A stretch of DNA of 64,000 nt from Proteromonas lacertae. Taxonomy: Eukaryota. The notes under the pieces are model-generated. The model ran no database searches, was not told where the DNA came from, and saw nothing but the letters and a program-made list of their open reading frames with translations. Position 1 is the stretch's first letter. Every line of letters begins with the position of its first letter. The stretch is from positions 1-64,000 of the forward strand of contig NGBS01001180.1 of the NCBI GenBank assembly GCA_002245135.1, read 5' to 3'. The translations under genes were made by a program, and so were the position numbers. Below, piece after piece: positions 1 to 53,652 of this stretch.

Positions 1-58
1 AAACGACCTATATAAAACTTTTAACTTATCTTTCAGAGAATCACAAAAGCTAATTATA

Positions 59-877: not shown

Positions 878-956
878 ATATATATAACAATATATAAATT
901 AAAGAATAATTCAAATAAAATTATATTTTAATATTTCTCAACAATTATAAAACATA

Positions 957-1928: not shown

Positions 1929-1981
1929 TAAATTTCTTGCTATTTTTAAGTATTTTTTAATCTTTTAAAATAACATAAATT

Positions 1982-3404: not shown

Positions 3405-3481
3405 ATAACACTTTATTATTGACTTCTATTTTTATTTTTTGATTTCTCACTACATAATATATATATATATATATATACACT

Positions 3482-4243
3482 ATGTTTAAATTTGAAAAAA
3501 TAAATAATATACAAATTGAACCTGTTGATGGTGGTGAGTCATTTGATCCTAAGAAAATTCTGGGATATGATTACTTTAATGAGCCTTTCTGCAATATATT
3601 TATTGTAGCTCGTAAGAACAGTGGGAAAACTACTTTGATATACAATATATTAAGACATATTATAGATCCAAAATATAAGAAAAAACAACATGTACATTTT
3701 TTCGTAGGTACAATTAAACAAGATAGGATATATGATTCAATTAAAGAGTTATTAGATTATAATGAAATTAGTTATGATGAAAACGATTCATTATTTGAAC
3801 CTTACTCAGGAGATAATTTAGTAGAGAAGTTAATGAAATCAATTGATGATACAAACAAAGATAATTTTGAGTATGCAGAACATATTATAATATTTGATGA
3901 TCTTAGTTTAGAGTTGAAAACAGCTAATATCATACCAGTATTAATGAAAGAAAATAGACATTTAAAATCAAAAATTATAATTAGTAGTCAATATATTACT
4001 GATATAGTACCTTCAGCAAGATCACAAGTAGATTATTGTTTAACATTTTATGGATTGAGTAATAGAAATTTGTTTGACTTATACAACTCATTGAATATAT
4101 GGATACCTGAATATGAAACATTTAAAGAGTTATATTTAGCTGTTACTAAGCCACAATATAACTTCTTATATATTGATAATGTTAAAAAAGTGTTTAGAGC
4201 TAACTTCAATATTTTGATTGAAGATCATTCTGAAGTTTCATGA
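3482..4243 (+). CDS. A32-like (FtsK/HerA superfamily) genome-packaging ATPase
   Basis: Walker A ARKNSGKT, Walker B IIIFDDL, and the A32 signature NRHLKSKIIISSQY followed by PSARSQVDY. Confidence 0.92.
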   Translation: MFKFEKINNIQIEPVDGGESFDPKKILGYDYFNEPFCNIFIVARKNSGKTTLIYNILRHIIDPKYKKKQHVHFFVGTIKQDRIYDSIKELLDYNEISYDENDSLFEPYSGDNLVEKLMKSIDDTNKDNFEYAEHIIIFDDLSLELKTANIIPVLMKENRHLKSKIIISSQYITDIVPSARSQVDYCLTFYGLSNRNLFDLYNSLNIWIPEYETFKELYLAVTKPQYNFLYIDNVKKVFRANFNILIEDHSEVS

Positions 4244-4287
4244 TGTTTTTATTGATTTTGTTATTTTATTGTTTATTAATACAAAAA

Positions 4288-5169
4288 ATGTTTATTGGGG
4301 AACGAAATACTTCAGATATAAATATTGATACAGATAAGCTTGCTAAAGATATAGCTGACAAAATAAATATACAACCTACTGATCCTGATACTATTGTTAA
4401 ACCCATCAATGATGAAATTGAAAAATGTAATATTAAAATAAGTGGATGTGATAATAAAATTACTAGTACATTAAGTGCAGTTACAACATTATCATATAAT
4501 AATGAAAATAATGAATATATTAGTAAAGAGACACTTGGAACATATTATTATCAAAATGATTATGAAGATTTTATGAAGAACAAAAGTGGTAAGTTTATGT
4601 ATTCTATCTATAAACATTGCAAAACTATGAATATAATATTTCCTACTATATTAGGTAAGTATTATACTACATGGACTGTATCGTTAAAAGAAGATTTAGG
4701 TAATAATAAGTATAATGAACAAATAATTGATCGTATACCTATTACAGTTACAATCTTCCCAAATTTTATGAGAATTAAAACATTAAAATTATGTCAAATA
4801 TTTAGTGGTAATAGACAACTTCGTAAAATTCGTTTACGTTTAGATAATGATTCTCTTTTATATCCTAAATATAGTTCAGATGATAAATTCTATTCATTTT
4901 TTGATCATTTATATAATCAATACCCTAATGATGGATCTAATGCAGTACCATTCCCTATAGAGATTCATAACAATAGTGTTACCCCACCTCAAAAATTATC
5001 TTGTAATTTTTATTTATATCATTTTAATGAAAATAAAGTTCTATTATGGTTAGAAAGTGATGGATGTGAAGGTGATCAGTATCAAGCAATATTACCTCAA
5101 ACAATTGATACAAAGATTATAGATTTTGGTTTAAGACATGTTTACCCTAATGATCAATCTTTATTATAG
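4288..5169 (+). CDS. Hypothetical viral protein, possibly fibre/spike-like
   Basis: Intronless ORF following the ATPase, with a short heptad-like N-terminal helix and a beta-rich C-terminus. Likely start is ATG 4288 (the track starts at 4240). Confidence 0.5.
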   Translation: MFIGERNTSDINIDTDKLAKDIADKINIQPTDPDTIVKPINDEIEKCNIKISGCDNKITSTLSAVTTLSYNNENNEYISKETLGTYYYQNDYEDFMKNKSGKFMYSIYKHCKTMNIIFPTILGKYYTTWTVSLKEDLGNNKYNEQIIDRIPITVTIFPNFMRIKTLKLCQIFSGNRQLRKIRLRLDNDSLLYPKYSSDDKFYSFFDHLYNQYPNDGSNAVPFPIEIHNNSVTPPQKLSCNFYLYHFNENKVLLWLESDGCEGDQYQAILPQTIDTKIIDFGLRHVYPNDQSLL

Positions 5170-5453
5170 TTTTAATATGAATTTATTATGTTTATTATTA
5201 TTTTTATTATTTTTTATTATATTATGTGATTTTTATTAAATTACGCATATTTTTAAACTCTGTTCCAAATCATTTTAAAATAAAGATTCGTTTTAAAATT
5301 TAGACTATGTTTATCGTAGTTTGATCATTATTTCCTTTAACTTCTTCTTGTACTTCTTCTTCTTCCTCATCATCACTATCATCAAATATATAATTCTTCT
5401 TTACATAATGTTTCAACATAGGATTCTTCTTCAAATGAACACTTCCCATTCCT

Positions 5454-5777
5454 TCAGGTAGTGTTAAACTCAATATACTTATCGAACACTGCAAAATAAT
5501 GTCTATTTAATCCTCTTGGTTTTACTGATGGTTTAATATCGAAAAGCATCATGTAATATCTCTTATCACTATACTTTGTCCACATCTTTTGATGGCAAAT
5601 AGCGCAGAATTCATTATAAGACTTTATCTCTTCCTTAGGTAATGGACTATCTAAAACTGCACTGATATTATGGTTAAAATATAAGTAAAACTTACATGTT
5701 CCACATATACACTTGTCCAAATAATCTTCATTATTTCTAAATGAACAAAAGAAAGCAAAGTTTACTGAAGCACACAT
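5454..5777 (-). CDS. Small Cys-rich (CxCxxC...CxxC) hypothetical protein
   Basis: 107-aa ORF containing CICGTC and CAICH. It overlaps an acidic 64-aa ORF (5300-5494) that may be its frameshifted continuation. Confidence 0.45.
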   Translation of the reverse strand: MCASVNFAFFCSFRNNEDYLDKCICGTCKFYLYFNHNISAVLDSPLPKEEIKSYNEFCAICHQKMWTKYSDKRYYMMLFDIKPSVKPRGLNRHYFAVFDKYIEFNTT

Positions 5778-6406
5778 ATTTTATATTTTTTGATAAAAAC
5801 GGTTTTTCTAAAATGCCAGGAAAATCAAAACTGTTTCTTTTTTCTGTTTATAACAACAGTTTCTCGTCAGAATTTCGATTTATTAAAAAATATAGAATAC
5901 TGTAGATAATTCTTTAAATATATATTTTTGACACTATTTAAATTCTTTTGAATGTTTTTAACTACACTATATAAATCCATAAATAATTTGATAAATGAAA
6001 AAAATAACTAAAAAAAGTAAGAACGCATTCTGTAGCTTGGCCACCACACTATTTAATCACTAAGTCCTAGCTAGGCTACACAGGACACGCTACTTACTTA
6101 CATAGAAATACATTTCTTATTATATAAAGTAGCTACCCTGCCGGGGTAGAACAGGTAGCTACCTATCTATTTATTACACTTTATTTCTACTATCCTACGC
6201 TAAAAACTATTGAAAACATAAAAATAAAATTTGATCCATAAATTTATTCACACACTAAAATATATACACAATTTTAAATTCATCACTTGCTCCAGTATAA
6301 CCCGTACCAAAAACTAATTCACACTCAAATCGCTTATTCTTATCTGTAGAAGGCACCTAAGAATAGTCTGGTACGGTTTACCCATATACAGTGATATTCT
6401 TACGGT

Positions 6407-7414
6407 TATACATATATCCAAAATTTGAAGTTTGCAGTTGAACATGGCTATAAAGTGGGTAAAGTGTACAGAATAATGAGATTTACTGAAGGTCTATATA
6501 TGGGTAAATATATTAATACTATGGTACAAAAAAGAGTCCAAGCTAAGGAAAACAATCAAAATACTACTGCAGACTATATAAAGAAATTAATGAATAGCTT
6601 ATACGGTAAATTTATGGAGCGTGTTGAAAAGAGAAGTAACATTTCTTTAATTACTAATGAAGACCAAATGATTAATGCTGCAAGTGATCCATGGTTTAAA
6701 GACTTTATCATTATTGAAGGTGATTTAAGAATTGCACATTTTCATAAGAAGCTATATGAAATTAATAAACCTATACAAATTGGAATGGTTATCTTAGCAC
6801 TGTCTAAACTCAAAATGCAAAAATATTGGTATGATGTATTAGATAAAAAATATGGTTCTGATAAGCTAACGCTATGTATGACTGATACTGATAGTATACT
6901 TTTCTCAGTTGAAACTAATGATATTTTTAAAGACTTAGAGGATCCTATCTTTAATAATTGGATTGATGGAAGTAATCTGAAAAATCCTTATTTAGAAAAT
7001 TATAAGTTAGATATACATAGAGCTGTTCATCCAGGTACACTAAATCGATTAAAATTTGAAGAGCAGGATAAGAATAATAAAAACCTATATGTTATAACAA
7101 AGTTTATAGGATTAAAATCAAAGTGTTATATATACGAAAAGGAGAAAGTGAATGATGATTCTGATAATAATACTAATACTGACAATCGTTGTAAAGGTAT
7201 TAATGTGAAAGTTTCTAGAAAAATAACTTATGATATATACAATGATTTTGTTGAAGGTGCTAGTAAAAGTCAAAAATATGAAGTATGTCAAATCAAATCA
7301 ATACATCATAATGTTTATACAACAGTACAAAACAAAACTGGCTTAACCTATTATGATGATAAAAGATATTTTTTTGATAAATACAATACATTGCCATATG
7401 GATATAAAAAATAA
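6407..7414 (+). pseudogene. Protein-primed family B DNA polymerase (Polinton-type), C-terminal fragment
   Basis: Motif B KKLMNSLYGKF, motif C MTDTDS, GLKSKCY, KGI and terminal DDKRY...TLPYGY. Exonuclease domain and motif A are absent; there is an in-frame stop at 6392. Confidence 0.93.
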
Positions 7415-7447
7415 TAATTAATTAATACTTATATATTTATTTTTCTT

Positions 7448-9375
7448 TTAAAATACTGACACCTCTTCATATTGAGGTACAAATTGAGGTACATTTGCAG
7501 TTACTATAAATTTTGAGCCATATTGTGGTGTTTGTTGACTATATTTTCTTGCTTTTTGTGGTATAACATGAAAAGTGTTATCGTATGGATTAATATATTC
7601 ATCACTAAACTTTTCAGTTTTTATAGAATCTGCCATTCTATTTAATCTTGTTTTCACTGAATTTATAATATTTTCTCTCACATTTTCTCTTCTTCTCATT
7701 CTATTAGTAGTTCTATTCATATCTAAATCTTTATTTACTGTACTACGTTCTATATTTTTTATTATTGCCTTACGTCTCTCTATAAACTTCCTCACTTGAT
7801 TGTAAGTTAAAGTATTTGGATCTAATTTTACAGGTTCTTCTGGTCTATTACTATATTTTTCATTATATTCTTTCAAATTATCAAAGTATTTGTTTATTCT
7901 TTTCAGTTTATCATCAATACTTTCTTTATTTGGCGGAAGGTTAATTTCATCTGATTCTTCATTAATAGTTGGAACAATATTATTAGGTCGCTGTAATAAG
8001 TCAGGATTGACTATATCTGTATTAACTGGATTTGGTATTGTTAAATCTAAAGTTGGTTCATTGTATATTAAATCATTCATCATGGGATATTGTACAAGTC
8101 CTAAATCATTATAAGAAGGTTTATTTGCATTATTCATTACACTTGCTAACTGAGTAGCATATACTGATTTTTCTTCTTCCATTCGTTTTAATATTTGTTG
8201 CATGTTATTTTGATATGTTAAATCATTTCCTTTAAGAGCTTTGATTGCTTCATTCTTTATGTATTCTATTTCATTTTGTTGATTATTTAATGACTATTCG
8301 CCTACTAATAAAGTTTCATTTAATTTCTTTTGTAATAATGCATTTTCTTCTACAGCTGAATTGTATAGTTGTTGTTGTTCTTGCAGTTTTTGTACATATT
8401 TATTTATTTCTACTTGAATCTTCATTTGCATATCCTCTAATTGTGTTTTATCTTTATCTCTAGTATTTTGCAATTCCTCAGATATAGCATTATAGCTTTC
8501 TTGAAGACTAGTTAAATCTTTTTCTGCTTGTTCATGATTCATTTTTAATGATAACATTTCATTTTCTCTTATTGACAATTTATCATTTATTGTATTATAT
8601 TGAATTAAATTTTGTTCTTTTTCTCTTTGTAATTCATTTATTCTGCTATTTAAATTTGTTACATTTTGTTGTACTTCTGCTTTACTGTATGGGTAATCCT
8701 CTTTATATGTATTATAATCACTTACAATTTTATTTTTGATTTCTTCTAAAGCTTTTAATTGTTCATCTTTTATATTTAAACTCTGTATATATTGTGTTTT
8801 GAGATTTTCTGCATTATTTAATGCTAAATTTAATTCTCTTTTATTTTGATTATTTGCATTTTTCAACTCCTCATTCTGTTGTTTTAATTCTTTAATTTGT
8901 TTTTCATATAAACTTTTTAATTCTTGATAACTTTCTTCATTATATTTCTGAGCATATAATTTATGCTTACTTTTAAATTCTTCAAGAATATTTTCTTTAT
9001 TGTTTAATTGAATCTTGTTACTTTCAAATAATTTATTAATTTCTTCTTTTTGTTGTTTTAAACGTTCTACCATATCCTTATAAGAAGTATTTTCAGTAAC
9101 TAAATCATCTCTTTTATTTCTTAGAGTTTTTAAATTATTCTCCAAAGCTATTTTTTATTCTTTCAGCTTCATCTGCTTTTAATTTAACCATATTATCATA
9201 ATTCTGTTGTTGTGCTGCTTTATCATCAGCATGTTCTTTATTAAACTTTTTTATCTCTGCTGCAGTATCTGCTTTAAATTTATTACAAGCAGCTAATGCT
9301 TCATCTTTTTCTTTTAATATATCAGTTATCATATTTCTATATTTATCAGCCTCCAGTTGGATTTCTAAACAATAA
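7448..9375 (-). pseudogene. Long coiled-coil protein gene, probably viral, disrupted by a frameshift (~9150) and an in-frame TAG (8294-8296)
   Basis: ORFs 8294-9145 and 7448-8203 share a frame with only one TAG between them. ORF 9135-9332 joins if one A is removed from the A6 run near 9151-9156. Confidence 0.7.
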
Positions 9376-12300
9376 ATCTATCATTTCATTACATTCTTTG
9401 CATGTATGAATTGTTAATACTTTATTACATACAATTTTTCTTACTGTATCAGAAATAAATCGAAGATTATTAGATTTAGTAATATCATTTTCATCTGTTT
9501 CATATATAAGTATATTCTGATATTTTTCCTTTGATATAGATGATATATTTATGCCTTTTATCATATTTTCAATCATTTCCTTGTTTACTTCATCTATTTG
9601 ACTTTCACACATTTTTAAATCATAGTAATATTTTCCAATTACACCTCCATAATATTCATAGTTGTCAAGATATTTATCTAAAATGTCTTTTAATTCTTTA
9701 TCATCATTTTCATTTCTATTCATAGGATTAGCTGGTATTCTTTGTATTTCACTATATTTAAAAAATGGCTTATCAGGTTTGATTAGAGTAGGATCATTCA
9801 ATTCTTTTACCTTTTCGATTTCTTCTTTGGTAAATGGAGGTATATACATCACCAGTGGGCATCTTTTACTTTGAAATGTTTTATACTTTTTTTCACATGG
9901 ATTAGCTAATAATATTATCATTTTTGCATCAGCAAAATCATCTTCTCCAATAATAACTCCATCAACAACAACAATGTATGGATAATTAAATCCATAATCA
10001 AAACAATCATGATTACTAATATCAGATTGTCCATCTATACTTCTAAAATCTATTCTAATATATTTATTATTTTCATGAATTTTGTTTATAATAATTTTAG
10101 CTAATTCTGATTTACCAATTTTTTCTTGACCAAATATCAAAAAGTTTCTTTGATTTTCATGATTCATATCTAAATCATCAGGATAAATAAATTTCAACAT
10201 ATCATTAAAGCACTTTCTCATCAATAATAATTCCTCACCATTATTATATACATCAAAATCTTGTTGTTGTTGTTGTTGCTGTTGTTGTTGTTGTTGCTGC
10301 TGCTGTTGATATTGTTGTTGTAATACTGGAAGCGGAATGTTAAATCTTTGATCATAATCATATACTCTCTCTTGTTTTATTAAACAATACTTAAAGTCAC
10401 CACTTTTAATCTCACTATATTCCTATTTTTATTATAAATATATTATATATTCATACTCTTATAGATTTTTCCATTCTTTCTCTATCTTCAGGAGTTATTC
10501 TATTTATATCAAAGTTTTCATCATCTAATAATACTTTTATAAATACTCCATTCATTATCAAATCAAAGAAATTATTTTCGTCCAATATATAATAAACAAA
10601 ATGTGATGCATTTGGAGGATAATGAACATACATCTGTTTTTCATAGTTTAATTTGAAATTTGGATCACTGTCAATTGGAGTTATCAACTCAATCATTTCA
10701 GTGCTTAATTCATATGCAATTATTTGTTTTAATGCCATTTTTCTAGTATATTTATCATCATCAATTGAATTATACTTATCTTTTACATTCTCATACTCTG
10801 TCTCATCTTTAGGTGGATAGAATTTAAAAACAATGTATTTTTCTACTTCTTCTGAAATGAATTTTAATTTTTCTTTTGGTTTTAAAAGAAAATGTTTTAA
10901 ACCATCATCCCATTCTGATTCTAAATCATATTTTAATATAATATTGGATAAATCATTATTTAACAAATTTTCCATCTTCATATACTTTTTTAAAAATTCA
11001 TTATAACCTGTTGTTCCTACTACACTGTCTATTAACTGTTGATAATACGTCCAATAATCTCTACCATAATTTTTATTATATAAATAATCGTAATAGATTT
11101 GTCTAGGTATATTACCATACTTTTTGCATATTCCTTTAAATTTGTTTAAATCACTAATGTTTATATTAATGCAATATGAAAACCAGTCTATTATTTCTCT
11201 ATCATTTAAAGAATCAAAATATAGTTGTTTACTAGTTTTTGGATTTGTATATTTATCGTTATTATTATGATCAGGTGAACTTATTGAAATTATTATGTTA
11301 TCATTGCCAAATTTACCATTGAAAGTGTCAACTATTACTATCGAATTATTAATATCACGTTCTTTTATATCACTTTTTCTCAGACTATTATTTTTAAATT
11401 CATATATTTTCCTATCACCAATATTTTCATATCTCTTTCCTTTAACTACATAAATATCTTTAATGGTATTATTATTTTTCCATATATCATCTAAAATATA
11501 ATAATTGAATCCCAATTTTACCATTTCATCATAATTTGGTGGTAATGAACCTTCAAAATCTTCTATTTTATCTAATGAACTTTCCATATTTCTCTTTAAT
11601 TCATTGTATTTATTTTTTATTGCTTCCTTTTCTTTTAAATACTTTTTAATTCTCTTTTCAATCATTTCTATTGAAATATTTCTTTTTTTAATCTCATTAA
11701 TTCTTTGCACTATAATTGATGATAGATAATATGCATTGACGAATCTTCCATATTGCTTAACTAGTTTATTATGAAGTATTCTCTTAAAATTAATTATCTC
11801 ACTTACTTCAATTACTTCATCTACATTCACAATATCATTCTTTGAACCTCTTATTTCTCTCTCTATCTTTTCAATATTTTCGTAGCATCTGTTTCTTACT
11901 TCTTTTTCATCATTTTCTTTTGAGAAATCATAATTTCTTCTTCTTTTAAATATTGTGAATGAATATATACTTCCAGTTTGTGTATAAAAATTCCTACTTA
12001 TATCATCATAGATAGTATCTTTTAGTTGTTTATAAAAGAATTTGTTTATTGTTTCTTTGTATACTTCAATCCTCTTTTTATTTCTTTTTATTTCTTTTTC
12101 AAGATTTTCTATTTCCTGATTAATAAAACATTTTCTTTGTTTCTCTTCTTGGTGTAATTCACTCAACCATTTTATATTATTTTCTCTTTCTACAATTAAC
12201 TCTTTTTTCCTCAGTAAATCTTTTTCATCTTTACCAAAATTGTGAGATAAATTATTCTTTAGAAAGAATAGTAAAACATAAATAAACGATGTTTTACCTA

Positions 12301-13066
12301 TACCTGGCTGACCTGTGATTATTATTCTAGATTTCTTTTTTAATAGCATGATTTTACATATATTTCGAAACATATCATAATAACAATCTCTAATGTAGAT
12401 TCTCTTCAATGGGAATTGAAACACATTGACATTTTGATCTGTATATTTTAGATATACCTTTTTTTCACCATCAATAGTAGTATAATCTACAGCTGTTAAA
12501 TTGTTAACAATTTTAACGAAATTATCTTCTTCATCTACTTTTCGTTTTTTTCTTTCACCACCAATATCATCTCCACGTCTTTTAATATTATCCTTTTCTA
12601 TAACTACTATTTCATCATTCTTCTCAAATAAAATGAATAAAGGATACATTGCATTTATGCACTGTAAATCTCTCAACATATATATAACCTTATCATGTCT
12701 GCTAATTGTCATTGTATTGCTATTTAGATCGTATTTTATATCATATATTGCACCTAATTGTAATTCTTTTACATGTACTTCAACTACATCATTACTATTT
12801 GCCTGTAGCGCTACTCCCCTGGTTAATATCACCATTTTATTACAGACTGCACCACTAATAACTTTTGAGTATCCTATACCAAGATTGTTAGCAACTTTCC
12901 GAATTTGGATTCTCATTGTATATACTTGATTTGCAGTTGAATATTTTTGGTATATACCTAATTTCAATGAATCATTTTCACTTCTAAATGAATCTTCATA
13001 TATCTTTTTTACTAAGAAACCATATCTGCAAAAATTATATGGCAAAATATTAATAACAGAGCTCAT
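9346..13066 (-). CDS. SPRY-like domain plus tandem Crinkler/RHS-like P-loop NTPase protein (~1228 aa; exons 13066-10457 and 10422-9346)
   Basis: A 34-nt phase-0 GT-AG intron at 10423-10456 joins the two ORFs. Module 1: IYIRDCY, IIITGQPGIGKTSF, IVIVD, ISSPD, YGNIPR, FISEEV. Module 2: FLIFGQEKIGKS, IVVVDG, MYIPPFTKEEI, YYGGVIG, FISDTV. A polyQ linker lies between them. Confidence 0.75.
10261..10320 (-). repeat. CAA/CAG trinucleotide tract encoding polyQ (19 Q in 20 codons)
   Basis: Directly visible; in frame within exon 2 of the tandem NTPase gene. Confidence 0.9.
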
Positions 13067-14003: not shown

Positions 14004-17000
14004 TTACTTTTTACTTTTCTTTGATTGATATTTTGCATCTTTTCCTTTTCTCTTCATTGGTTTGTTATTATCAGGTGCTTGAACATGAACTTTAGGAGCA
14101 GCAGTCTTAATAGATACAACACCAGTTTCAAAACTACTTTTAATACCTTTTTCCCAGTCATTTTTACTACCTTTCAATTCATATTCACTCAAATTCATTT
14201 GTTGTAATATTTTATGATTCATTGTTGTTTCTTCTTTATCTAATTCATTATCAAGTGATTCAGATAATGGCTTCATATCTTTTGTCTTATTTTCACTATC
14301 AATTTGTGTTTTTTCTATCTCTTCAATATAATTCTTTCGACTTATTGCATAGAGAGCTGTTACAAATTTTCTGATACTTTTATTGAACATTGCTAATATT
14401 TGTGATACAGGTAAACCGTATTCTAATGATAAATCATCTACATTTTTATGCTGTAAACCTTGACCAACTAAAATAGATAATTGTAAGTAAGAAAAATGGC
14501 CAATTTCAGGAATCATTCCAAGAAAATATAATCTGGTCAAAGTTGGTAATAAATCAACAATCATATGATAATCAACAAGATTTTTACTATAAGATTCTAA
14601 TCTTTTGATATCATGTAAAGAAAAGAACAAATTCAAATTTTGATTATTCAATTGAATCAGATTCTTTTGTTTTTCAAATGTTTCTAAATCTGAAACATTC
14701 TTTCTCAAAGATTCATCTAATAAAAGTGTTGATAATTCAGTTGAAAATTCTTTACATTCATATGATAACAATGACAAAAATCTCTTCTGAAAATCAGCTA
14801 CAAATGGCATTAACCATCCTTTTTGAGGCATATTCGGTATAACGGTTGAAGGGTCATTCACATCTAACGGTTTAATCATAATACAAGAATGTTCACCAGT
14901 TAGTTCATTTGGAGTTAAACGAATATAAACTGGACTATATCCACCTTTCACTGCCCAAAATTTGAATAATTGTTGAGTTAAACCAAATGCAACTCCTAGC
15001 CAATGCAATTTCTCTGGAGGACGATCTTTTAATGCAATTAATAATGGTGGTAGCTTTGATCTTGGTTTTAATTCTTCAGTTGTTAATATTGAAGTTTCTG
15101 GAAGTGGTTCTGGTTTTATAGTTTCAATATATTCATCACCATCATTACCATCTAAAATATCAAATCCTCTTATTTCACCTTGATAGTATTTTTGTAATAG
15201 TTCTAATGCTCTAGCACCATATCCTTGATTAATAGCATCAGGATGAGTAGCTATTCTTACAATTCTTGCACCTGAAAGTGTTGGAAAATCATTATCTTGA
15301 AATTGTTGAGATACAGTCCATGGTATTAAATCACCAGCAGATTTCTCACCTTTTAATAATTGTGACCTTACTGTATCAGCATTTATTTCACCTTCTAAAC
15401 ATACTTGTATTACACATAATATATCTGGTAATAAATTATCACTATTTTTACTACTAGAATCATTATTTATATTTCCTAATAATGCAAATAATCTATGTGC
15501 TGGAGCATCACTCAATAATTGTAAATCATTAGGAGAATTCTTATAATGAGATGATACATATAGACTCATCATTTTATATAACAATTCTTCAGATAGTTTA
15601 TGATAAGAGAATAATGTATCACGATTGATATAATATAATTCACATTGTGATGGATGAGGTAAACCTCTAGTTAATCTATATGCTTTACTAGTTGCATCTA
15701 AACATAATAAATTATTCAGCCATTTTTCTATTGGATCATTTTGGTTGTATCTAATTGGTTCTTCTAATGTAATTTCTTTGAATATTCTAGAATCTGATCC
15801 TTGATTCATTCTTAATTGATTTATTAATTTCAATGATAATGCTCTTCCTGTTCCTTCATATCCAGTTACTGTACTACTTAAAAATACTAAGTATGGACCA
15901 ATTAATTTCTTTACCATTGGTAATGGAATTGCAGCTGCTTCATCTACAACAACAAGCTCGGCTTGAGATAATTTTTCATAATCAGATGGTATAATATATT
16001 GTATAGTTTGTCTATGTGAATGATAGATATTAATTCGAACTATTGCATTATGATAATCAGGATTAGTTGATTGAATTACTTCATAATCTGTATGCTCTTT
16101 ATAACATAATACATTAAACCCTTCCAATATAAATTGAAATACGGTGTTGAGGTTTTCGGGTGTAGGAGCTGTAACGAATATATTACTATAACCATGAGCA
16201 ACTGCTCCTGCAATTGATAAACCTAATGATGCTGATTTACCTCTACCTCTTGCTGCTGTTAATGCTACAGTCGATCTTAATGTCTTTTCAGCTATTGCTT
16301 CAATGAATAACAATAGGGCTTTTGCTTGATCTACTGTTTTGGTTAAATTTACTAATACTTCTAAATGGTCTGATCCTTTGAGTGATTGTTTGAGTTTCTC
16401 TAATTCCAGTTGTTGTGGTGTCTTAGTGGTTGGATCGATTTGTACTGGGATTATATGAGTTATTGATTTGGAGAGTGGCAAGATTGTTAATTCATCGTAA
16501 AATATTATAAATTAAAGAAATAAACTATAATAATATATATATATATATATATATATCAGATTGTGTTCGGTACTCTATTAAATTCATCATATTATTTATT
16601 ATATAAATAATAAAAACATCAAGAGCCGAGAGTAATAATCACTTATATATATATATAATAAAAATGTAAAATAAGTAAAAATTAAAAAAGATATATCTAA
16701 AATAACACATCCTTCACAGTTAGATAGTGATAATATAAATCTTTCGTTAAATCTTGCTACAACATCATTATGTGCTTCTGTTCTAAATCTAGAGTGAGTA
16801 TCCATTGTCATTGTGTATAACTGACGTAGTGACGTCATTGTACGCAATAATAACACAACCATTCCTCCTCCTTCTACAGTTTCTATTGTTCTACAGAGTA
16901 AATTTGGTGTTAATGCTTCGAAATCTTGTAAGATACACATACCGTATGTTTGACCTAATATTTTATGTGATTCTTTGTAATAGCACCAACGAATATCAGT

Positions 17001-17361
17001 GGAAGATATGAATAAATCAAATGGATTATCATTTTCTGGATCATACAAACCACGACTAATCATCTTTTTGATTTGCTTCATTCTCTTCTTTTTATGACTA
17101 TTCAATATATATAATAATTATAATAATTATAAATACGTAGAAAAACCTAATTCCTTCTTGTAACACCATAATACTGATGGTCTAGCTTTAACTTGTGACT
17201 TACTGAGAATGTAGTGAAGATTAACAATCTAAGAATGAAGAATTAAATGATACTTGATCTTTGCCTCTATCTCCAATGATTACAAACAAGCTACGAGTGT
17301 TTTGTTTAATTGAATTTTCAATCAAAGTACGAATTCGTTGATCAACTTTCTTTTGTGGCAT
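14004..17361 (-). CDS. NAT10: RNA cytidine acetyltransferase NAT10/Kre33 (4 exons; introns 17229-17253, 17098-17136, 16497-16694)
   Basis: MPQKKVDQRIRTLIEN...VIIGDRGKDQ, VLWCYKKELGFS, LQDFEALTPNLLCRTIETVEGGG, TAARGRGKSA, DEAAAIP, HYKNSPNDLQLLSDAPAH, RIVRIATHP. Confidence 0.98.
16497..16694 (-). other. Putative U12-type (minor spliceosome) AT-AC intron, 198 nt
   Basis: 5' end ATATCTTT and 3' end TTTTAC, with branch-like TTTCTTTAAT 14 nt upstream of the 3' end. Removal restores conserved ILD|DELTILP. Confidence 0.85.
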
Positions 17362-19016: not shown

Positions 19017-22000
19017 ATGAATAAATTAAATATTAAGCGTCTCCTAATCAGTATGATTGTAAATTATAATATTTTATAGCATTTTTATTGCTTCTATTAT
19101 GCGTTGAAGGTAGTAGGAAGGAGATAGAAGCAATGAATGCCAAAATTTCGACTAAAAGTGGATTAAAGAGAAATCTTAAGACAACTGGTCAAGGTACTGA
19201 AACAGTTGAATTGTCAGATGGAAAAGCAGCTCATGGCAGTTGGAATGTGTTAGTTGATGGATTAAAATGTGACAATCTGGATGAACATACTACAGATGGT
19301 CATTGTAGAGTTACAGGTGATACTGAAGAAATATGGGTTACTAAGAACTCATTGAAGGTGAAATACATTCATAAAGGACAAACTATAGTAAATACACCAA
19401 GTCCTGCTAAAGGAATTGAAATGACAGTAGTTTATTGGGGAACTACAAAGAAATCTTTAGTAACTTCGAGTGGGACATTTTCTCAGTTTACACCTTCACC
19501 TGTAAATTCAAAGTATTGGAAAAGTAATAGTGTTAATGGCAAATATGATCCAGATTATACAGGATTAGAAGGAAATGATTTGAATAATAATTATATGAAG
19601 AATTATTACAATTGTTCTGATTTACCTGAATTTGCCTCATTAAATTGGATAAAAGAATATTGTCCAAATGGTTATGATGGTGTATTAATAGCTATTGATA
19701 AAATTACAACTGTGGAAAGTGTTTCTAGTAATTTCTATTACTTTACATTTGAAAATGATGAAAGTCTCGCTTATATTGCTGATGTTCAAGGAAATGAAAT
19801 TAAGAGTTTTTTCATTGAAAAGGTATTAAAAGTTGAAGATATATCTAATATTATTAATTCAATGGATATTAGAACACATCATATTAGCAATTATACATTA
19901 ATCACTAATAATTTGATATTATCAAACTGTTCAGCTGCTCATATATTCACTAATGACTCTATTAATTTTACATATAAATATGTCTATCAAGGAGGTATAA
20001 AGACAGATGATAATGGATTATATACCAATTATACAATTGATGTTAGTTGTGGTAATATTGAATCATTATCTGGTGTTTATATGGATAGTAATTTTACTGG
20101 AGCTTATGATGGTATTAAAGAAAAAGATCATTGTTTAGATTTACCACCATTATCAGCTGATGAAATACTCTCATTTACATGGTTAAAGATAAACTGTAAT
20201 AGTTTTTATAAGACTTTACTACTTGAAGATCCAATGAAAGATAGCTTAAATGGTGTAGGTAGTTTCTTGGAGAAAGATAATGATGATATATATACAGCAT
20301 CATTTGCATTACGAAGATATAATTCAGAAAGACCTCATGAATATGCAAATGAAAAGAATCCATTCACTAACGATGATGATTTTAAAGAGAGTGGTGAATA
20401 TGGTATTGGTTTAATAAACACTCAAACTAGTTACAAAATAGTATATGGATTTGACCAATTAGAATGTAGTGGAACTAGTAGAGAATTCGCTTCCTTAGGA
20501 TCAGCTGATGGTGTAATTGGAGTAGATAATACCAATAATAACATCATGTACTTAACAGATAAAGATAAAGTTATCTATGGCAATACAAACAATGGTGCAA
20601 ATTCAAATTATGTATATAAAGTATACCAAACTGTAGAATCAAGAGTAGATATTGACAACTTATATACATCTTACACTTTGAATGAAGTTAATGATGATTA
20701 TAGTGGATTTGACTGTAGTTATGATGTCAATGTAAACTTCTTTAAGAATGATCAAAATGACAGTTGTAGATGTGAATCTGAATTTATATCATTCAATTGG
20801 GTTAAAACTCATTGTTCAAATATTGATATAATTAATGATATTAAAAAACCTCTAGAATTATCTGCAAATTACACACGAGCTGTTAATAACAATCAAACTG
20901 TCTATATATATGATTATAATACTAATGAAGTTAGAAGAAACGAATATGCAATGAATTTAGAAGATCAAAATCATTTATCCCCTAAGATGATGATTGATAC
21001 ACATGAAATCAGTAAAGAGAAAGCATTGATGAAGAAAATAGATCAATTTACAACTTACTATGTAAATAGTGAATTAGGATTTTATGTATTAGATAATGTT
21101 GTTGATCATAACAATATAAAGAGAAGAATAAAGTATAATATGGTACATCACGATTATACAATCAATGATCCAGTTTTAAACAAACAATCAAACTATTCTG
21201 AATTTATTGTTAAAGATTTAAATAATGAAGAATCTGGAATATTCATTAATGATGAATTGAAGCAATTATTAGCTAATTGTACTGAAATACCTGCAGTTTA
21301 TATTGATGACGATGGAGTATTACCTTACAAATGGATTAAAGAGAATTGTAGAAGTAAACAAGATATATTAATCAGAGAATTGAATGAAAATGAAAAGAAA
21401 ATATTTGTTGATAAATTGGCAATTAGATCATATGATGCTACAGTTGCACATCAATATAACAATATATTAAACCAATTAGTTAATACACAAGATGATTATA
21501 TATTAGTTGATAAGATGATAATGAAACAAGCTTTGAATGTATTTGATAATGATGATAAAGTTCCAAGACCAATTAATACTGATGTAAATGGTGCAAGTAG
21601 TAGTTGGAATGATGAAAATGATTTAAAAGAAGGAAATATTATTACATTATATTATACTAATGATAATGTTACATTTACATACTTTAATAAGAAACAAACA
21701 ACAAAAGTTAAAGTATTTTTACCAGCAAATAAAATCAATAAAAATGTAGTATGTAGTAATGAATATGGAAATGGAAAATGTAATAAATTTACAACAGATG
21801 TAGCTTCAGATGAAAAATTAACATTTACTGATATGATTTATGATTATAGTGGATATGAAGGAGAAGCAAATCGAATTTACTTTAAAGAAAACTATAAGAA
21901 TTGTCCATCCTTACCCGAATTTGCTTCATTCCGATGGTTACAAGTTAACTGTAGAGAATCAATTGAAAAGATGGTAACTCCATTCTTAAATAGATTTGTA

Positions 22001-23803
22001 GGAGATAATACAAGTGCAATTTATCTATCTACATCTATTGCTAAACCACATAATGGAACTGTTTTTTTAAACTGTGGAAATAGTCCAGTAATAAACACTA
22101 CTACATGTGATTATCATCCTATTATCATACATAATAAAGTGAATATAACAAAATCAATGTTAATCGAATCAAGTGTAATACCTGAAGGAAATGGTTGTAA
22201 ATTAGAAGAGAAGAATTTGAAAGATAGAGAAACAGGTGAAAGATATGATTTAACAAGTTATTTAACTGACTATATGGTAGGAAAGAAGAGAGTAGTTTAT
22301 AATTTAGATGGAAGTGTGAAATTAGAATCAACATTATTCTGTACAACTTCAAAGAAAAGCTCAATAGATGGAAAATATTCAATCTATGAAAGTGGAACAG
22401 AGAATTATGTCGAAAGTAAAATTGTAGTAAATGATTATGTGAAATCATTATTCAATAAATATGGTTGTTCAACAGATCAAGAGGAAGTTAACTTTGAATG
22501 GATTTATTTACATTGTTTAACCGCTAAGAATGACTTATTTGATGATTGTGATGAGAATCCAATCTTGGTAGGTCAAAAGGGAAATGGATTTATTGCATTA
22601 CCTATTAAAGAAGTAAAAAGAACACTTGTAGATGAAACAAAAACAACACCAGAACCTACTGAAACAACAGCAGCAGATAAAAATAATAGAATAGTAGGTG
22701 ATGAAAACTTTGTAGAATATGAACAACATCCTATTTCAAGTTATATATTTGTAAATACTGATAAAGTATATACAATCAAGTCCAACAAAGCCATTGTAAA
22801 GGAATTATCCTTCTCTCAAGGTGATTATTTACCCATTCCAGATAGTCAAGGAGCAATAGGTAAATGGATGACTGAAGTAGATTTAGAATCGTTATCTGCA
22901 ACAAAAGAAGCATTAGTATATGAATATACTTTATTAAGAAAACCATTAACAGTGAAGATAGTAAAATTTGTTGAAAGTGTGAATAAAGAATCTCGATATA
23001 CAATCTACAATACATTTGGTGTAGATGAAGATTACAGTGGATATATGAATAATAATGCTAATCGAAATTATATAGAAAATATCTGTAAATTGAACAATTT
23101 ACCTGAATTTATGTCATTCAAATGGATAAGGATTTACTGTCAAGATAAAGTGACTGAATTAATAAATCAAATGTCAAGTCGATATGTTGGTAATAAAGTG
23201 GAAATTGGTCGATTAGTGAATAGTGCTGATGGTGCAAATATAATGATGAATGGAATAGCTGATGTAGATAAATTCTTACATGTAGAAGATATAGGAACAG
23301 TTCGAAGAAATCAAATGATAACTGTAGTAGGAATGAATGATAATGACAATATTATAGATAGATCAAAACCACTTATTACTATATTATATGGAACTGACCA
23401 TATAACCTATGTTGATCATAAACTAGGATGTTATAGACAAATCTCTGTAAAAAGAGTGAAAAATGGTAAAGTAACCACATTCCAAAAAGGATCACCACAG
23501 CAAGGAGGTAGTTGTAATGTTGAGAATGATGTTATACAGACAATTGATGTTGCTTTAAGATATGAAGGAGGAATTAACGCATATAAAGTGAAAGATGACA
23601 AGATTGTTGATTCTGAGTTTACATATGAAGTTAGATCATTTGCTGATGTTGATAATGAAGCTAAACGAATGATTGAAACAATACCTTCAAACACTCCTCA
23701 AGCTCATGAAAATTCTGAGAAGGATTACAAGGAAGATAAATCCAGTTCAATTGACCATATATTCATGATATTGACAGTTATAATTGTAATGGGTTTACTT
23801 TAA
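19017..23803 (+). CDS. Large secreted/surface protein, paralog 1 (~1585 aa; intron 19051-19079)
   Basis: Splicing gives the signal peptide MNKLNIKRLLITFLLLLLCVEG. Seven Cys/Trp repeats; hydrophobic C-terminal tail consistent with a GPI signal or membrane anchor. Confidence 0.85.
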
Positions 23804-23986
23804 ATAGAAGATATTATTATTTTAGACAGAATTCTCTCATATATATTTGTTTGTTTGGGAAATAGGATACTATATAGTTGCTTTAATAAATATCAAAATT
23901 CACAAAAATAGAGTAATAGTTGAAGATTAAGAAAAATAGAAAAAAACTACTCAAACCATATTCAAGCTGCATTAACAACAGTTAAG

Positions 23987-26900
23987 ATGTATTTCAAATA
24001 TTTTGGCTTAACCATTTGTATATTTACTTTAGTTTTTATTTCAATAGGTTTGCTTATATGCACTGTAGGTGTAGAAGCAACTATGACCAGAAAGGATGTT
24101 AAGCAGTTGATTAAATCTGCAAAAGCTACTTTTGGAAGGATTACTGCAGAAGTTGATTCATCTTCTATACATACTTTAGGTACAAATGAAGGTGTTCATG
24201 GTGTATGGAATGTTCTTGAAAATGGAGCTACTTGTGAACCAGTTAATATGAATGATAAAGATAGTAATTGTAAAGTCACAGGAGATACTGAAGAAATATG
24301 GATGAGTAAAAATGCTTTGAAGATAAATTACATTCATAAAGAACAAACTACAGTAAATACACCAAGTCCTGCTAAAGGAATTGATATTACAGTAGTATTT
24401 TGGGGAAATAGAAACGACGATGGACCTGAAAAATATTCGAAATTTGAACCAAGCAAAGTAGGTGAGGTACATTGGGTAAGTGAGTCTAAAGATAATAAAT
24501 ATTATGATCCAGATTATACAGGATTAGAAGGAAATGATTTGAATAATGATTACATGAAAACTACATACAATTGTTCTGATTTACCTGAATTTGCCTCATT
24601 AAATTGGATAAAAAAACATTGTCCAAATGGTTATGATGGTGTATTAAAAGCTATTGATAAAATACAAACTGTTAAAGATATTACAACAGAATCAACTGAT
24701 AATCCAAATGGTTTAAAAGTTGCAAGAAATGATACTTCAAATTATGCAGTAATATTAAAAGATGATAATCATTATTATACAGAGAAGATACTAGAGATAG
24801 GAAGTATTGAACATATAATTGATTTAATGAATATAAGAACTCACAATATTAATGATTATACATTACACGTTGATAATTTCGAATTTTCCAACTGTTCAGT
24901 TGCATATACAGTAAAGAATGATACTTATGGATCAAATTGCAGATATATATACAGAGGAGGAATAGAACAACCAACTGATGAATATGATGAACATGAGTAT
25001 TATATTAATGATTATACAATATATTCTGTTGATTTGAGTGATGTTAGTATGATATTATCAGGTGTTTTCCTTACACAAACATTTAGAGACTATTATGCCA
25101 ATACATTTAAAAGTTGTTTAGCTTTACCAAATAAAGAATTCATTGAGTTTTCATGGTTCAATCAGAATTGTTATGATTTGGAAATAGACAATATATGTCC
25201 AAAACATGAAGGAGTTATTAGTGGATTTGAAAAGAAAGGAGATTATAGATTTGTAGGAAGATTTGCATTGAGAAGATCAACATCATTAAAAGCATATGAA
25301 TATAAATATCAAAAATCTCCGATTAGTAATGATATTAGTGTTTCTGCTGATGGAAATCAAACATTATTATATTCAGTTGGTTTAGTAAATACACATTCAA
25401 CTTACACTATAACCAAAGGTTTCAATTATGAATGTTATGGTAATCAAGACTTCATCTCTATTCCACCTACCCATGGTGTTATTGGTGCATTACCTTATAA
25501 CGATAGTACAAGTAAAGATTTAGAGATAGTCTATTTAACTAAGGATGCTTCTGTATATTACAGATTTGATGAGACAAATCAAATAACTGTTAAACTATTC
25601 AAACAAGTCAATACATCAATATATGAATCAAGTATATATATATATATATATATTATTATTTTTTTTTTTAGCCTATACTCAATATATTTATTCCAATTCA
25701 GTAATGGATGATGATTACAGTGGATATGATTGTAGTAGTGATGCAAATGTGAATTACTTTAAGAAAGACTCAAAACCAGAATGTCGATGTGAAAGTGAAT
25801 TTATTTCATTCAATTGGATAAACACTCACTGTTCTGAAGATACCAAGAAACATGCTATAACCGACATGAAGGCAATACATAAAGAAAATTTCATTTACAT
25901 AACAAAGAACATGCTGAATGAGACTGTCTATTTTGCAGATAAGATTGAAAATAATTTACCAATCATCAGAAAGAACTATATAATGACAAGAACAACAAAA
26001 TTAGAAGCATCTCTCAAGATGATGGTAGATACACATCCAATTAATGATACAAAGGTAGTGAGTATTATGATAAATGATAAACAAGGTTATATTAGTGATT
26101 TAGGTTTTTTTGTAGTGGATATTACAAATGGTACAACCTCAAGAGTGAAATATGATGTAGAAACATATATACCAAAAGATAAATCATATTCTTATTATAC
26201 AATTGGTAAATTGAATGATGTAGATTCAGGAGTATTTATAACTAAAAATTTGAAGGAAATATTGAAAGAATGTGCTGAAATTCCTCCAATCTATGAAACT
26301 GTATTACCATATAAATGGATAAAAGAAAACTGTCAATCTCACTCTTCATTAATGATAAATATAGATGACAATATATTGAATAATATCCCAAAGAAATTAT
26401 CAATTCGATCATATGATGCAGTTGTAGCTCATAAATATGGTGAAAATGAATTAATTGAAACAGATATTGATTATAAATTGGTAGATAAAAGTAAAATGAA
26501 AGAAGATCTTCAATACTATGAAGAAAGTGATTATGCTCCAATTCCATTAGATGAAAATGAAGGAGGTAGTAGTAGTTGGAATGATAATCAGAATGTAGGA
26601 AGTATTATCACATTACATATAACAAAGGATTATACTCAATATATATACTTGAATAAAAGACAAGCAACAACAGTAAAGATCTTAATTCCATCTGAAAAGA
26701 CATATCTACCAGTTAGTTGTAGTAATGGAATAGCTGGAAGTTGTAGTAAATTTACATGGTATAAAACTGTTACAACTGCAGTACCTGGAGTTTATACTTC
26801 AAACCATTTAATTGATGTGATTTATGATTATAGTGGATATGAAGGAGAAGCAAATCGAATTTACTTTAAAGAAAACTATAAGAATTGTCCATTATTACCC

Positions 26901-28805
26901 GAATTTGCTTCATTCCGATGGTTACAAGTTAACTGTAGAGAATCAATTGAAAAGATGGTTGATCCATTTGTAGCAAGATTTGTAGGTGAAATGAATGGAA
27001 TCTATTATTCTAAATCCTTAGCTAAACCTCATAATGGAACTGTTTATATAAATTGTAAAGAAAATAATACTATTATTGAAGGTTGTGAAACTCATCCAAT
27101 GATAGTTGATAGTGTATTAAATGTGACAAAATCAATGTTAATCGAATCAAGTGTAATACCTGAAGGAAATGGTTGTAAATTAGAAGAGAAGAATTTGAAA
27201 GATAGAGAAACAGGTGAAAGATATGATTTAACAAGTTATTTAACTGACTATATGGTAGGAAAGAAGAGAGTAGTTTATAATTTAGATGGAAGTGTGAAAT
27301 TAGAATCAACATTATTCTGTATGACTGAAAAAGTAAATCAAAAAGATAGTAACAACAACCATTATACTGAATATTTAGGTGGAAGTACAAATTATGTAGA
27401 AAGTAAAATATTAGTAAATGATTATGTTAAAGAAGTATTATCAAGAGCAGGATGTGTAGCAACAACTGATTATATTCGATATGAATGGATTTATTTGAAT
27501 TGTACTAAAGTTATATCAACATTGGTGAAAGAATGCAGTAAAGAGAATTCGGTATTAGTTGGTCAAAAAGGGACTGGATTTATTGCATTACCAATTAATA
27601 AAGTAACAGTAAAAAAAGTAGATGAAACCACTACAAAAGCTGCAACAACAACTCAAGGTGATGGTTCTAAAGAAGGTGAAACTAAATATGAAGTTAATAC
27701 AATTTCAAATCACTTATTTGTTCAATCCAACAAAGTGTACACCATCATTTCCAACAATCAAATCTTCAAGGAATTAGGTTATACAGCTGGTAGATATATG
27801 CCAATCCAATTAGGTCAAGGAGCAATAGGTAAATGGATGACTGAAGTAGATTTAGAATCTTTATCAGTGACAGATGAAGCATTAGTATATGAATATTCAC
27901 TCTTAAGAAAACCATTAACAGTGAAGATAGTAAAATTTGTTGAAAGTGTGACAAGAGGTTATACAAATACAATTTATACTACAACATCAACTGGAGTAGA
28001 TTATGATTACAGTGGTTATGAGAATAACAATGCAAATGGAAATTACATTGAGAATAAATGTGAATTAACAACACTACCTGAATTTATATCATTCAATTGG
28101 TTGAAACAAAACTGTGTAAATGGTACAAAAGAATTAATAGACCAAATGTCTAGTAGATATGTCGAAAAGAATGAAGTTAAGATTGCAAGAATAGTTGATA
28201 GTATAGATAAAGCAAATATTATGGTTGAAGATAAACCAGATGTTGATAAATTATTACATATTCAATATGATGCTTTAGTAAAGAGAAATCAAATGATTAG
28301 CACTGTGGAATTACCTGAAGAAAGTAGTATAATTGTATTATCAACCACCACTCAAGATGATAATAAGAAGGTTTATTATGGTAAAAATAGAATAGTTTAT
28401 GTGAATGAAAATGAGAAATGTTATAAACAATATGGTTTAACAAGAAGTAAAAGTGGTAAAGCAACAAAATTAGTGAAAGGAGGATCACAATCAACTGGTA
28501 ATTGTGAAGGTGATAATATTATTGAATCTTCAATAGATGTTGCTTTAAGATATGAAGGAGGTATTAATGCTTATAAAGTGAATAATGACAAGATTGTAGA
28601 TACAAAGGATGTTTATATTGTTAAATCACTTGATGATGTAGATAATGAAGCTGAGAAATATATTGAACAGTTTAATGGTGAAGCAGTTAATCCATCTAAT
28701 GTTAATAATGATAAACAGAATAGTAAGAGCGATGATAGTGCTTATTCTCTAAGTAAGTTTGTTTTCATTTCATTATCAATAATGGTATTAGTTACATTGA
28801 TGTAA
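23987..28805 (+). CDS. Large secreted/surface protein, paralog 2 (~1592 aa; intron 25632-25671)
   Basis: A 40-nt GT-AG intron joins the two ORFs in frame. Colinear with paralog 1, with signal peptide and hydrophobic C-terminus. Confidence 0.87.
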
Positions 28806-28991
28806 TAGAATACAATAAATACTTAAATATTAATAAATCATACTATAAACAAAGTCAGTTTACTTCACTTATATTTTGTTTGTATTGATCTTTTCAAAGA
28901 AAATAGAAATTGGTGTAACCAAAATTTAATGAAAATTTTGAAAAACCATTTTGACAGTTTAAATTTGAATTTTCAAATTCAATATTCTCAA

Positions 28992-43580: not shown

Positions 43581-44070
43581 ATTAACAAACTTAAATAACA
43601 CTATTACCACATGTTAAGTTATAATATCTTTACTTATTTAAATAAATATTACTAAATTATACTCAGGAGTTTTCTAAAAATTTCACTAAAACAATATATT
43701 TAAGGACGATAGGCGATTAACTTAACAAACTTAATATATAGTTTATAAATAGGACAATGGCTACATGTCACGCAGTTCTTACGAGTGTTCCTAGGTCTTT
43801 CCCCTTCTAGATCAAGAGTTGACTTCTACAGGAGCTTCATACATTGCATCGATAAGCTCAACTTCACTTGTGAAGACTTCGAAAGTTATAGGAAAGTAAT
43901 AACCTAAGCAAGGTGAACCACCTTCAGAACTACCCGATGATGACGCAAATGGTTCACTTTTCTTCATCACCCATAGGAATATTTTACTTATATTATAACT
44001 AAGTATATTAGTAATAATAAATTAATGAAAATTTATGTAATTATAATTAAAAATTAGGCAGTTTATACTA

Positions 44071-53525: not shown

Positions 53526-53652
53526 TAATTAATTATCAATATAGTAGAATTTTTATTAACATTCTTTCTTTTTACTTTGTGCTTCTTGTTTTATTCAACA
53601 TTCTTTAATTTTATAATCATTATTCCTATATTTCTATAGACATATATACATG

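Follow-up and report, generated by a model that had tools for sequence, protein, structure and literature searches.

U12-type introns are on record both for the lineage and for the gene considered here. In subtype ST1 of Blastocystis, 346 such introns, typically with AT-AC ends, have been described along with all four minor small nuclear RNAs (snRNAs) and seven minor-specific proteins, and minor snRNAs and minor-specific proteins have been reported for subtype ST7 too (PMC5608401). A later survey of Blastocystis listed 253 minor introns with a median length of 39 base pairs (bp), of which 77% are AT-AC and 49% in phase 0, and reported rapid turnover between subtypes (PMC10639083). The AT-AC introns of ST1 were all classed as U12-type, and the consulted sections of the two papers report no U2-type AT-AC class (PMC5608401; PMC10639083). 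Given this repertoire, an AT-AC minor intron in phase 0 is typical of the clade, and changes in intron type or presence between its lineages are to be expected. As for the gene, the consulted part of a minor-intron list places human and mouse NAT10 among the minor-intron genes, with introns of the GT-AG subtype, a 5′ site reading GTATCCTCC and lengths of 593 and 534 nucleotides (nt) (PMC6717393). Here we describe a 198-nt AT-AC interruption in the NAT10 (RNA cytidine acetyltransferase) gene on a 64,000-nt stretch of DNA, positions 1 to 64,000 of contig NGBS01001180.1, which as a whole is called the window below. The interruption is almost certainly a real, conserved AT-AC intron and, judging from its sequence signals, is most likely a substrate of the minor (U12-dependent) spliceosome.

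This intron resembles the U12-type AT-AC introns of Blastocystis in that it comes from the same clade, has AT-AC ends, lies in phase 0, begins with an ATATC-type 5′ site, carries a branch motif near its 3′ end and is set in a genome whose GT-AG introns are very short. On the other hand, it differs from the published set in its length (198 nt versus the median of 39 bp; PMC10639083), in the C-to-T changes of its signals (ATATCTTT, TTCTTTAAT) and in a conserved box C/D-like core in its interior, and its host genome is about 25% G+C, versus 39–55% in human Blastocystis isolates. The vertebrate U12 intron lies in the same gene, about 60% along it by coordinates, whereas the intron of the window follows residue 201 of 1031 (PMC6717393, from the entries consulted); from these coordinates we infer that the two positions differ.

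The NAT10 gene of the window comprises four exons (Table 1). Its spliced model encodes 1031 amino acids (aa) without an internal stop, matches NAT10 proteins with E = 0 and is 58.8% identical to the protein of Blastocystis sp. P0018 over 1006 aligned columns. The product contains, in this order, the Pfam domains TmcA_N, NAT10_TcmA_helicase, GNAT_acetyltr_2 and tRNA_bind_2, all four far above their cut-offs. The TmcA_N match stops at the last residue before the 198-nt intron, which sits exactly at the domain end, and residues 202–1031 are encoded without any further intron. The intron is 14% G+C and contains seven in-frame stop codons. Its size stands out, as the preliminary description of this DNA had pointed out when it set 198 nt against 25–42 nt for nearby GT-AG introns: the other two introns of NAT10 are 25 and 39 nt long, and those of the neighbouring gene 29 and 42 nt.

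The ends of the intron can be fixed from the protein. On the minus strand, the junctions read ...TTA GAT / ATATCTTTTTTAATT ... TTTCTTTAAT TTATAATATTTT AC / GAT GAA TTA..., and the intron, from 16694 down to 16497, reads ATATCTTTTT...TTTCTTTAAT-TTATAATATTTT-AC. All GT-AG, GC-AG, AT-AC, AT-AG and GT-AC pairs around the gap were listed that keep the frame and leave no stop, which gave 121 donor/acceptor pairs. Only eight of these are GT-AG or GC-AG pairs, and the conserved DELTILPLS block is lost in all eight. Eleven pairs keep DELTILP, every one of them ending at the AC of 16497, and a single pair, 16694/16497, yields a gap-free CVILD/DELTILP, which aligns without gaps to all eight full-length homologues compared (from stramenopiles, animals, plants, fungi and amoebozoans). 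The bases on either side differ, which prevents the mRNA join from sliding by even one base, and since only one join restores the protein, the AT and AC ends are forced. The AT-AC intron that the preliminary description had placed at 16497..16694, restoring the conserved ILD-DELxxLP, is thus the unique solution among the 121 pairs. As a further control, 80 of 80 metagenome NAT10 loci run continuously through the intron site as ...D/DE[LM]N.LP. These loci came from a scan with exon 3, are at best 75% identical to it and include none of the window's lineage, so they control for the protein junction only, in a sample biased to intron-poor, fungus-like genes.

Table 1. Coordinates of the NAT10 gene, its introns and the elements within the 198-nt AT-AC intron (positions in the window).
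Feature	Position	Strand	Remarks
NAT10 (RNA cytidine acetyltransferase) gene	14004..17361	minus	exons 17361-17254, 17228-17137, 17097-16695, 16496-14004 (stop included)
NAT10 intron 1	17229..17253	minus	25 nt, GT-AG, reads GTATCATT...TTAG; position fixed by homology
NAT10 intron 2	17098..17136	minus	39 nt, GT-AG, reads GTATTTAT...ATAG; position set by homology
AT-AC intron of NAT10, predicted U12-type	16497..16694	minus	198 nt, phase 0, unique join
5′ splice site ATATCTTT	16687..16694	minus	one mismatch (C6 to T) from the consensus ATATCCTT
5′ (TA)n arm	16643..16657	minus	pairs with the (AT)12 arm in the minimum free energy fold; I-Y-I runs of variable length in relatives
Box C-like GTGATTA	16636..16642	minus	one mismatch to RUGAUGA; adjoins the 5′ (TA)n arm
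GC-rich segment 1, TCTCGGCTCT, then D′-like TTGA (16619-16622)	16619..16631	minus	conserved in relatives
AT-rich spacer	between segment 1/TTGA and box C′	minus	
Box C′ ATGATGA, canonical	16584..16590	minus	N-M-M-K of relatives P0123 and P0372 implies ATGATGA too
GC-rich segment 2, AGAGTACCGAACACAA	16561..16576	minus	conserved; followed by T and box D
Box D CTGA	16556..16559	minus	directly before the 3′ (AT)12 arm
3′ (AT)12 arm	16533..16556	minus	Tandem Repeats Finder: period 2, 12 copies; pairs with the 5′ arm in the fold
Branch-site-like TTTCTTTAAT	16511..16520	minus	two mismatches to TCCTTAAC, both C-to-T
3′ terminal AC	16497..16498	minus	end point of all 11 DELTILP-keeping pairs

Relatives of the window carry an interruption at the same site. 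They were seen as translations, that is, as exon-sized open reading frames (ORFs) of a protein collection that had been called on unspliced contigs; as the intron is in phase 0, such ORFs read on from the exon into the intron. There were 17 read-through fragments from three related lineages, whose exon 3 is 89%, 87% and 79% identical to that of the window. Following the conserved D, 16 of the 17 continue with I-S-F and one with I-S-Y. The run D/I-S-F fits ATH TCN TTY and is compatible with both ATATC[CT]TT and ATATCNTT. When the window is compared with relative P0121, the first three intron codons (9 nt) are identical, none of the next 11 codons shares a residue, I-Y-I (from a TA run) is shared further in, and after one differing codon D-Y-Y-S-R-L-L is identical, with nothing shared in the last six codons. 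An apparent constraint over 9 nt at the 5′ end of the intron fits a long U12 5′ splice site. The protein search returned no ORF that reaches upstream into the 3′ end of a relative's intron, the only one there being P0036, which starts about 30 residues downstream.

U12-type introns have the 5′ splice site consensus ATATCCTT, with [A/G]TATCCTT directly at the exon junction, and a branch site, TTCCTTRAY, some 10–20 nt from the 3′ splice site, and they need no polypyrimidine tract. In the NAT10 intron, TTTCTTTAAT stands 12 nt before the terminal AC, its second A being 15 nt before the last base of the intron, and all three departures from the U12 consensus sequences are C-to-T. We estimated how often such signals coincide by chance by setting a 198-nt span at 127,560 places on the two strands of the window and scoring ATATC with at most one mismatch to ATATCCTT at the start, a terminal AC, and a U12-like branch motif 8–21 nt from the end. 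Singly, these were found in 0.07%, 4.2% and 4.2% of placements, respectively; together they were found in one placement of the 127,560, which is the NAT10 intron. Since protein homology fixes the placement of the intron independently, the coincidence is of the order of one in a million. It is the 5′ site that gives this test its weight; taken by itself, the branch motif counts as weak evidence in DNA as AT-rich as this. Counted over both strands, ATATCTTT has 22 copies in the window and TCTTTAA has 55, so the branch-site evidence is less strong than the preliminary description implied.

For local comparison we used 14 putative GT-AG introns of the window, 25–74 nt long, which were obtained by ORF joining; homology fixes two of them, and several are unconfirmed. 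In no case do their last 6–21 nt match the branch consensus with two or fewer mismatches, and the AT-AC intron, with two, is the best of the 15. The best 5′-site match among the 15 is shared by the AT-AC intron and NAT10 intron 1, with one mismatch each, the latter beginning with GTATCATT, which departs at one position from the U12 5′ consensus of the GT subtype; intron 1 has no U12-like branch motif and is presumably a major intron. Position +5 in the 14 introns is A in nine, G in two, T in two and C in one. A motif scan combined with ORF joining found no second credible U12-like intron in the window, only many chance motif pairs. One rejected candidate lies at 55458-55524 on the plus strand, where a perfect ATATCCTTT is followed 59–67 nt on by a branch-like ATCTTTAAT and AG; it is antisense to the ORF 54999-55853, and we regard it as a chance match.

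Several observations weigh against assigning the intron to the minor spliceosome. Of the local GT-AG introns, 12 of 14 start with GTAT, so that ATAT is just how a major intron with G1 changed to A would be expected to look, and only positions +5 to +8 (CTTT) of the 5′ site discriminate between the U12 and the major type. Even there, the start of NAT10 intron 1 illustrates that C at +5 is possible in a presumably major intron. Near the 3′ end, a TTTAAT-type branch core occurs in several putative major introns, 7–15 nt from their ends, and, as noted above, 4.2% of random placements pass the branch test by themselves. The 5′ sites of the relatives were read from translations, in which serine could also be AGY, and 198 nt is far above the published median for Blastocystis minor introns. 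Conversely, that Rfam yields no U11, U12, U4atac or U6atac match in the 64-kb window says little, as none would be expected in 64 kb.

Much of this would also suit a U2-type AT-AC intron, that is, an ordinary intron spliced by the major spliceosome in which G1 had changed to A and the 3′ G to C, its U12 likeness arising incidentally from the GTAT consensus of local 5′ sites, from branch sites like TTAAT and from the high A+T content. Such an intron would share with ours the AT-AC ends and the first four bases, ATAT, which are the local GTAT with G1 to A; the GTAT starts, the start of intron 1, the TTTAAT-like cores and the permissive branch test speak for it, as does a GT intron with G at +5 in a related lineage (see below), by which a major intron did or does occupy this site in the clade. 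We nonetheless consider this explanation improbable. Elsewhere, AT-AC introns of the U2 type are to our knowledge extremely rare. Position +5 is A in nine and C in only one of the 14 local introns, yet all 17 fragments of the relatives have I-S, most simply ATH TCN, and 16 of them have TT at +7/+8; the +5 to +8 bases are thus kept in relatives and, like the branch motif, which none of the 14 introns matches within two mismatches, they fit U12 better than the local GT-AG set. The AT-AC introns of Blastocystis ST1, moreover, are all U12-classed in the consulted part of that report (PMC5608401). It is far less probable still that the segment is not spliced at all but is a recent pseudogene-making insertion, an assembly artefact, a translated insert or a piece removed from the DNA before transcription. 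Its low complexity with (TA)n runs, and the GAT at both flanks, which can be read as a 3-bp target duplication, would suit an insertion; both GAT codons, however, encode the conserved D-D, and no terminal inverted repeat is evident by eye. Translation is barred by the seven in-frame stops in the standard code, which the long ORFs of the window use, and the remainder of NAT10 is intact over 1031 codons. Furthermore, the 17 fragments of three related lineages show this interruption again, agreeing with the window in its first codons and its internal core; it is therefore old and kept.

The U12-type assignment made in the preliminary description is accordingly the best-supported reading, given the unique AT-AC join, the U12-like signals, the 5′ site kept in relatives and the grouping of the gene with Blastocystis, while the branch-site evidence is weaker than it implied. 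Its suggestion that the signals are shifted towards A+T is reasonable, all three changes being C-to-T, and draws on this one intron. In minor introns, the 5′ site is paired by U11 and U6atac and the branch site by U12. In the predicted U12-type intron of NAT10, the partners of ATATCTTT would be U11 and then U6atac and that of TTCTTTAAT would be U12, with a bulged A serving as the branch point at 15 nt from the 3′ end; the C-to-T changes would keep snRNA pairing as G-U wobble, which would fit a genome of about 25% G+C.

The interior of the intron holds a second set of ordered elements. Box C/D small nucleolar RNAs (snoRNAs) have a box C (RUGAUGA) near the 5′ end and a box D (CUGA) near the 3′ end, joined by a terminal stem, and their guides comprise at least 10 nt complementary to ribosomal RNA (rRNA) or snRNA that end next to D or D′. 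The order of elements in the intron, namely terminal stem, C, guide, D′, C′, guide, D and terminal stem (Table 1), is that of a box C/D snoRNA, and on this basis the intron may well host one. Its being about five times longer than its neighbours would then be because of this likely cargo, and the snoRNA would be trimmed from the excised intron after splicing. Conservation points the same way. Segment 1, translated as D-Y-Y-S-R-L-L, is found in the window and in seven members of the closest cluster although the surrounding intron has diverged, and it reads D-D-C-S-R-L-L in two members of the cluster with 79% identity. In this latter lineage, two frames (P0123, Y-D-D-C-S-R-L-L; P0370, Y-M-M-I-A-L-G-S) imply a canonical ATGATGA at box C followed by the same TCTCGGCTC; with the second ATGATGA implied by N-M-M-K further on (Table 1), it appears to have two canonical TGATGA boxes. 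By our own reading of the translation, Q-E-L-E-H-K of P0123 is compatible with much of segment 2 if one base is missing. Apart from segments 1 and 2, the intron has no GC-rich stretch, and both seem to be conserved.

A number of features speak against a snoRNA. Box C has one mismatch and D′ is degenerate (TTGA). The two segments in guide position pair with one another over 8 bp, which is unusual for guides, and the fold of the whole intron is no better than those of shuffled sequences (z = −1.26). Rfam gave no match on 16450-16750 at E up to 10, and on the whole window it gave none at the gathering threshold and none over the intron at E up to 5. These features, together with the predicted folds, leave some room for a different account of the interior, compatible with either spliceosome, in which the (TA)n arms and the helix between segments 1 and 2 act as a structural clamp that loops out about 110 nt, so that the 5′ site and the branch site would lie as close together as is usual for the spliceosomes of this organism and the effective intron would be shortened. 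We hold such a clamp possible but rather doubtful. It would suit the minimum free energy (MFE) fold, in which the (TA)n arms pair over 14 bp, and the pairing in both MFE and centroid folds of TCGGCTCT in segment 1 with AGAG-TA-CCGA in segment 2 (8 bp and a 2-nt bulge); it would also suit the 25–74 nt of the neighbouring introns and the fact that the only two GC-rich stretches, both apparently conserved, are the ones that pair. It does not, however, account for boxes placed as a C/D RNA needs them, with the 5′ arm followed directly by the C-like box, the 3′ arm preceded directly by CTGA, and ATGATGA inside, nor for the two apparent TGATGA boxes in the lineage with 79% identity. Covariation is not seen, as the paired segments are conserved rather than changed, and the z-score of the fold is only −1.26.

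If the core is a snoRNA, it would resemble the intron-hosted C/D snoRNAs of animals, plants and fungi in lying on the strand of its host gene, in having C and D boxes by a terminal stem and internal C′ and D′ boxes, and in residing in a gene from the sphere of ribosome biogenesis. It would differ from them in belonging to no Rfam family, in the mismatch of its C box, in its mutually complementary guide-like segments and in its predicted U12-type host intron; a U12-type intron is, as far as we know, not the usual host of a snoRNA. NAT10 itself uses guide RNAs for rRNA acetylation in yeast and human. It is unlikely that the intronic C/D-like RNA is a guide used in this way by NAT10, and by eye we found no convincing complementarity between it and the universal 18S motifs known to us. 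Segments 1 and 2 resemble, again by eye and in the sense orientation, what we take to be a stretch of large-subunit rRNA, a likeness not used here as evidence. Elsewhere in the window, Rfam gave two sub-threshold C/D matches on the plus strand, SNOR75 at 60358-60436 (E 0.79, 26 bits versus a 50-bit cut-off) and snR67 at 23588-23720 (E 4.3), both probably due to chance.

A fourth, Blastocystis-like lineage (that of P0128), 67% identical to the window and 76% to Blastocystis sp. P0018, also has an intron at this codon boundary, and its five fragments continue after D with V-C-F (three), V-R-stop (one) and V-G-Y (one). These imply GTN NGN, with G at +5 in all five, which is the signature of a U2-type intron. 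As an intron with a GT start and G at +5 occupies the same boundary, the site is shared in the clade while the class of intron differs. Conservation of the intron position among NAT10 orthologues, which the preliminary description had proposed as a check, consequently lends the U12 class no support, there being no intron in any of the 80 metagenome loci (a biased sample, as noted), a GT intron in the fourth lineage and a vertebrate U12 intron that by its coordinates lies elsewhere in the gene. A position shared with U12 introns of orthologues supports the U12 class where it is present but is not required for it. We tentatively propose that this one NAT10 intron position switched spliceosome class within the Blastocystis clade, the U12 intron having been kept in the AT-rich lineage and enlarged as host of a lineage-specific C/D snoRNA. 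Under this proposal, the AT-rich lineage would have at this site a U12-type AT-AC intron whose signals are relaxed and shifted from C to T, and another lineage would have a U2-type GT intron there.

The placement of the window beside Blastocystis is supported by a quick maximum-likelihood tree of 28 NAT10 proteins, in which the window and two Logan relatives are sister to Blastocystis sp. (Shimodaira–Hasegawa-like approximate likelihood ratio test, 97) and the group formed by Blastocystis and the window nests in a group with oomycetes, with long branches. Likewise, exon 3 is 80% identical to the Blastocystis sp. protein but at most 75% identical to the 80 metagenome loci. The window is 21–30% G+C, uses the standard code with canonical stops, and has short introns of variable length and intergenic spaces of several hundred bases. 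Tortoise-derived Blastocystis genomes are reported, in the consulted part of their description, to be 21.5–23.1% G+C, with longer and more variable introns, retained stop codons and median intergenic distances of 645–719 bp, and Proteromonas lacertae is given there as 27.0% G+C (PMC12129017). The base make-up and gene spacing of the window thus fit an AT-rich reptile-gut Blastocystis or Proteromonas. The main text of the tortoise-Blastocystis paper, as consulted, makes no mention of U12, minor splicing or AT-AC introns (PMC12129017). The tiny introns might also suggest a ciliate-type code or internal eliminated sequences, but we rejected this, as no stops of the standard code interrupt the long ORFs and NAT10 falls among the stramenopiles in the tree.

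Some further features of the NAT10 gene and of the window deserve mention. In the relative P0036 (84–87% identical), the end of the C-terminal ORF leaves NAT10 after ...PPERLH and enters AT-rich nonsense at a point where the window reads an uninterrupted ...PPEKLHWLGV..., which suggests that the relative has an intron here that the window lacks. Positions 1-8300 of the window hold tightly packed, short-spaced genes on both strands, with a spacing unlike that of the rest, and one of their ORFs, at 6395-7414, has a domain of the organellar/viral type B polymerases, DNA_pol_B_2; this block may be a Maverick/Polinton-like or virus-derived insert. Three paralogues on the minus strand (36873-38711, 41850-43613 and 51771-53528) have an Acyl_transf_3 plus SGNH architecture, that of bacterial-type O-acyltransferases, and seem to have arisen by local expansion from a gene of possibly bacterial origin. 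Finally, very long ORFs of 871, 1577, 595, 1072 and 1499 aa in 10451-13066 and 19070-33709, which lack any Pfam match at E up to 1e-5, are lineage-specific, low-complexity proteins.

These results have a practical side. Gene callers limited to GT-AG and GC-AG introns would split or truncate the essential NAT10 gene, and the exon-sized ORF fragments under which its relatives appear in the protein collection illustrate the splitting that the preliminary description had foreseen. To that description our analysis adds that sister lineages differ in the class of the intron at one site and that the intron probably carries a snoRNA. The lineage's minor spliceosome being already on record, no current view is overturned; instead, the published repertoire of Blastocystis minor introns is extended to a very AT-rich organism that belongs to the genus or is its sister. 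The case bears on the drift of U12 signals towards A+T, on the change of intron class at one site between sister lineages and on the minor intron as a snoRNA host. If the proposed class switch and cargo are true, the production of a small RNA would be tied, in this lineage, to the minor splicing of an essential rRNA-modifying enzyme.

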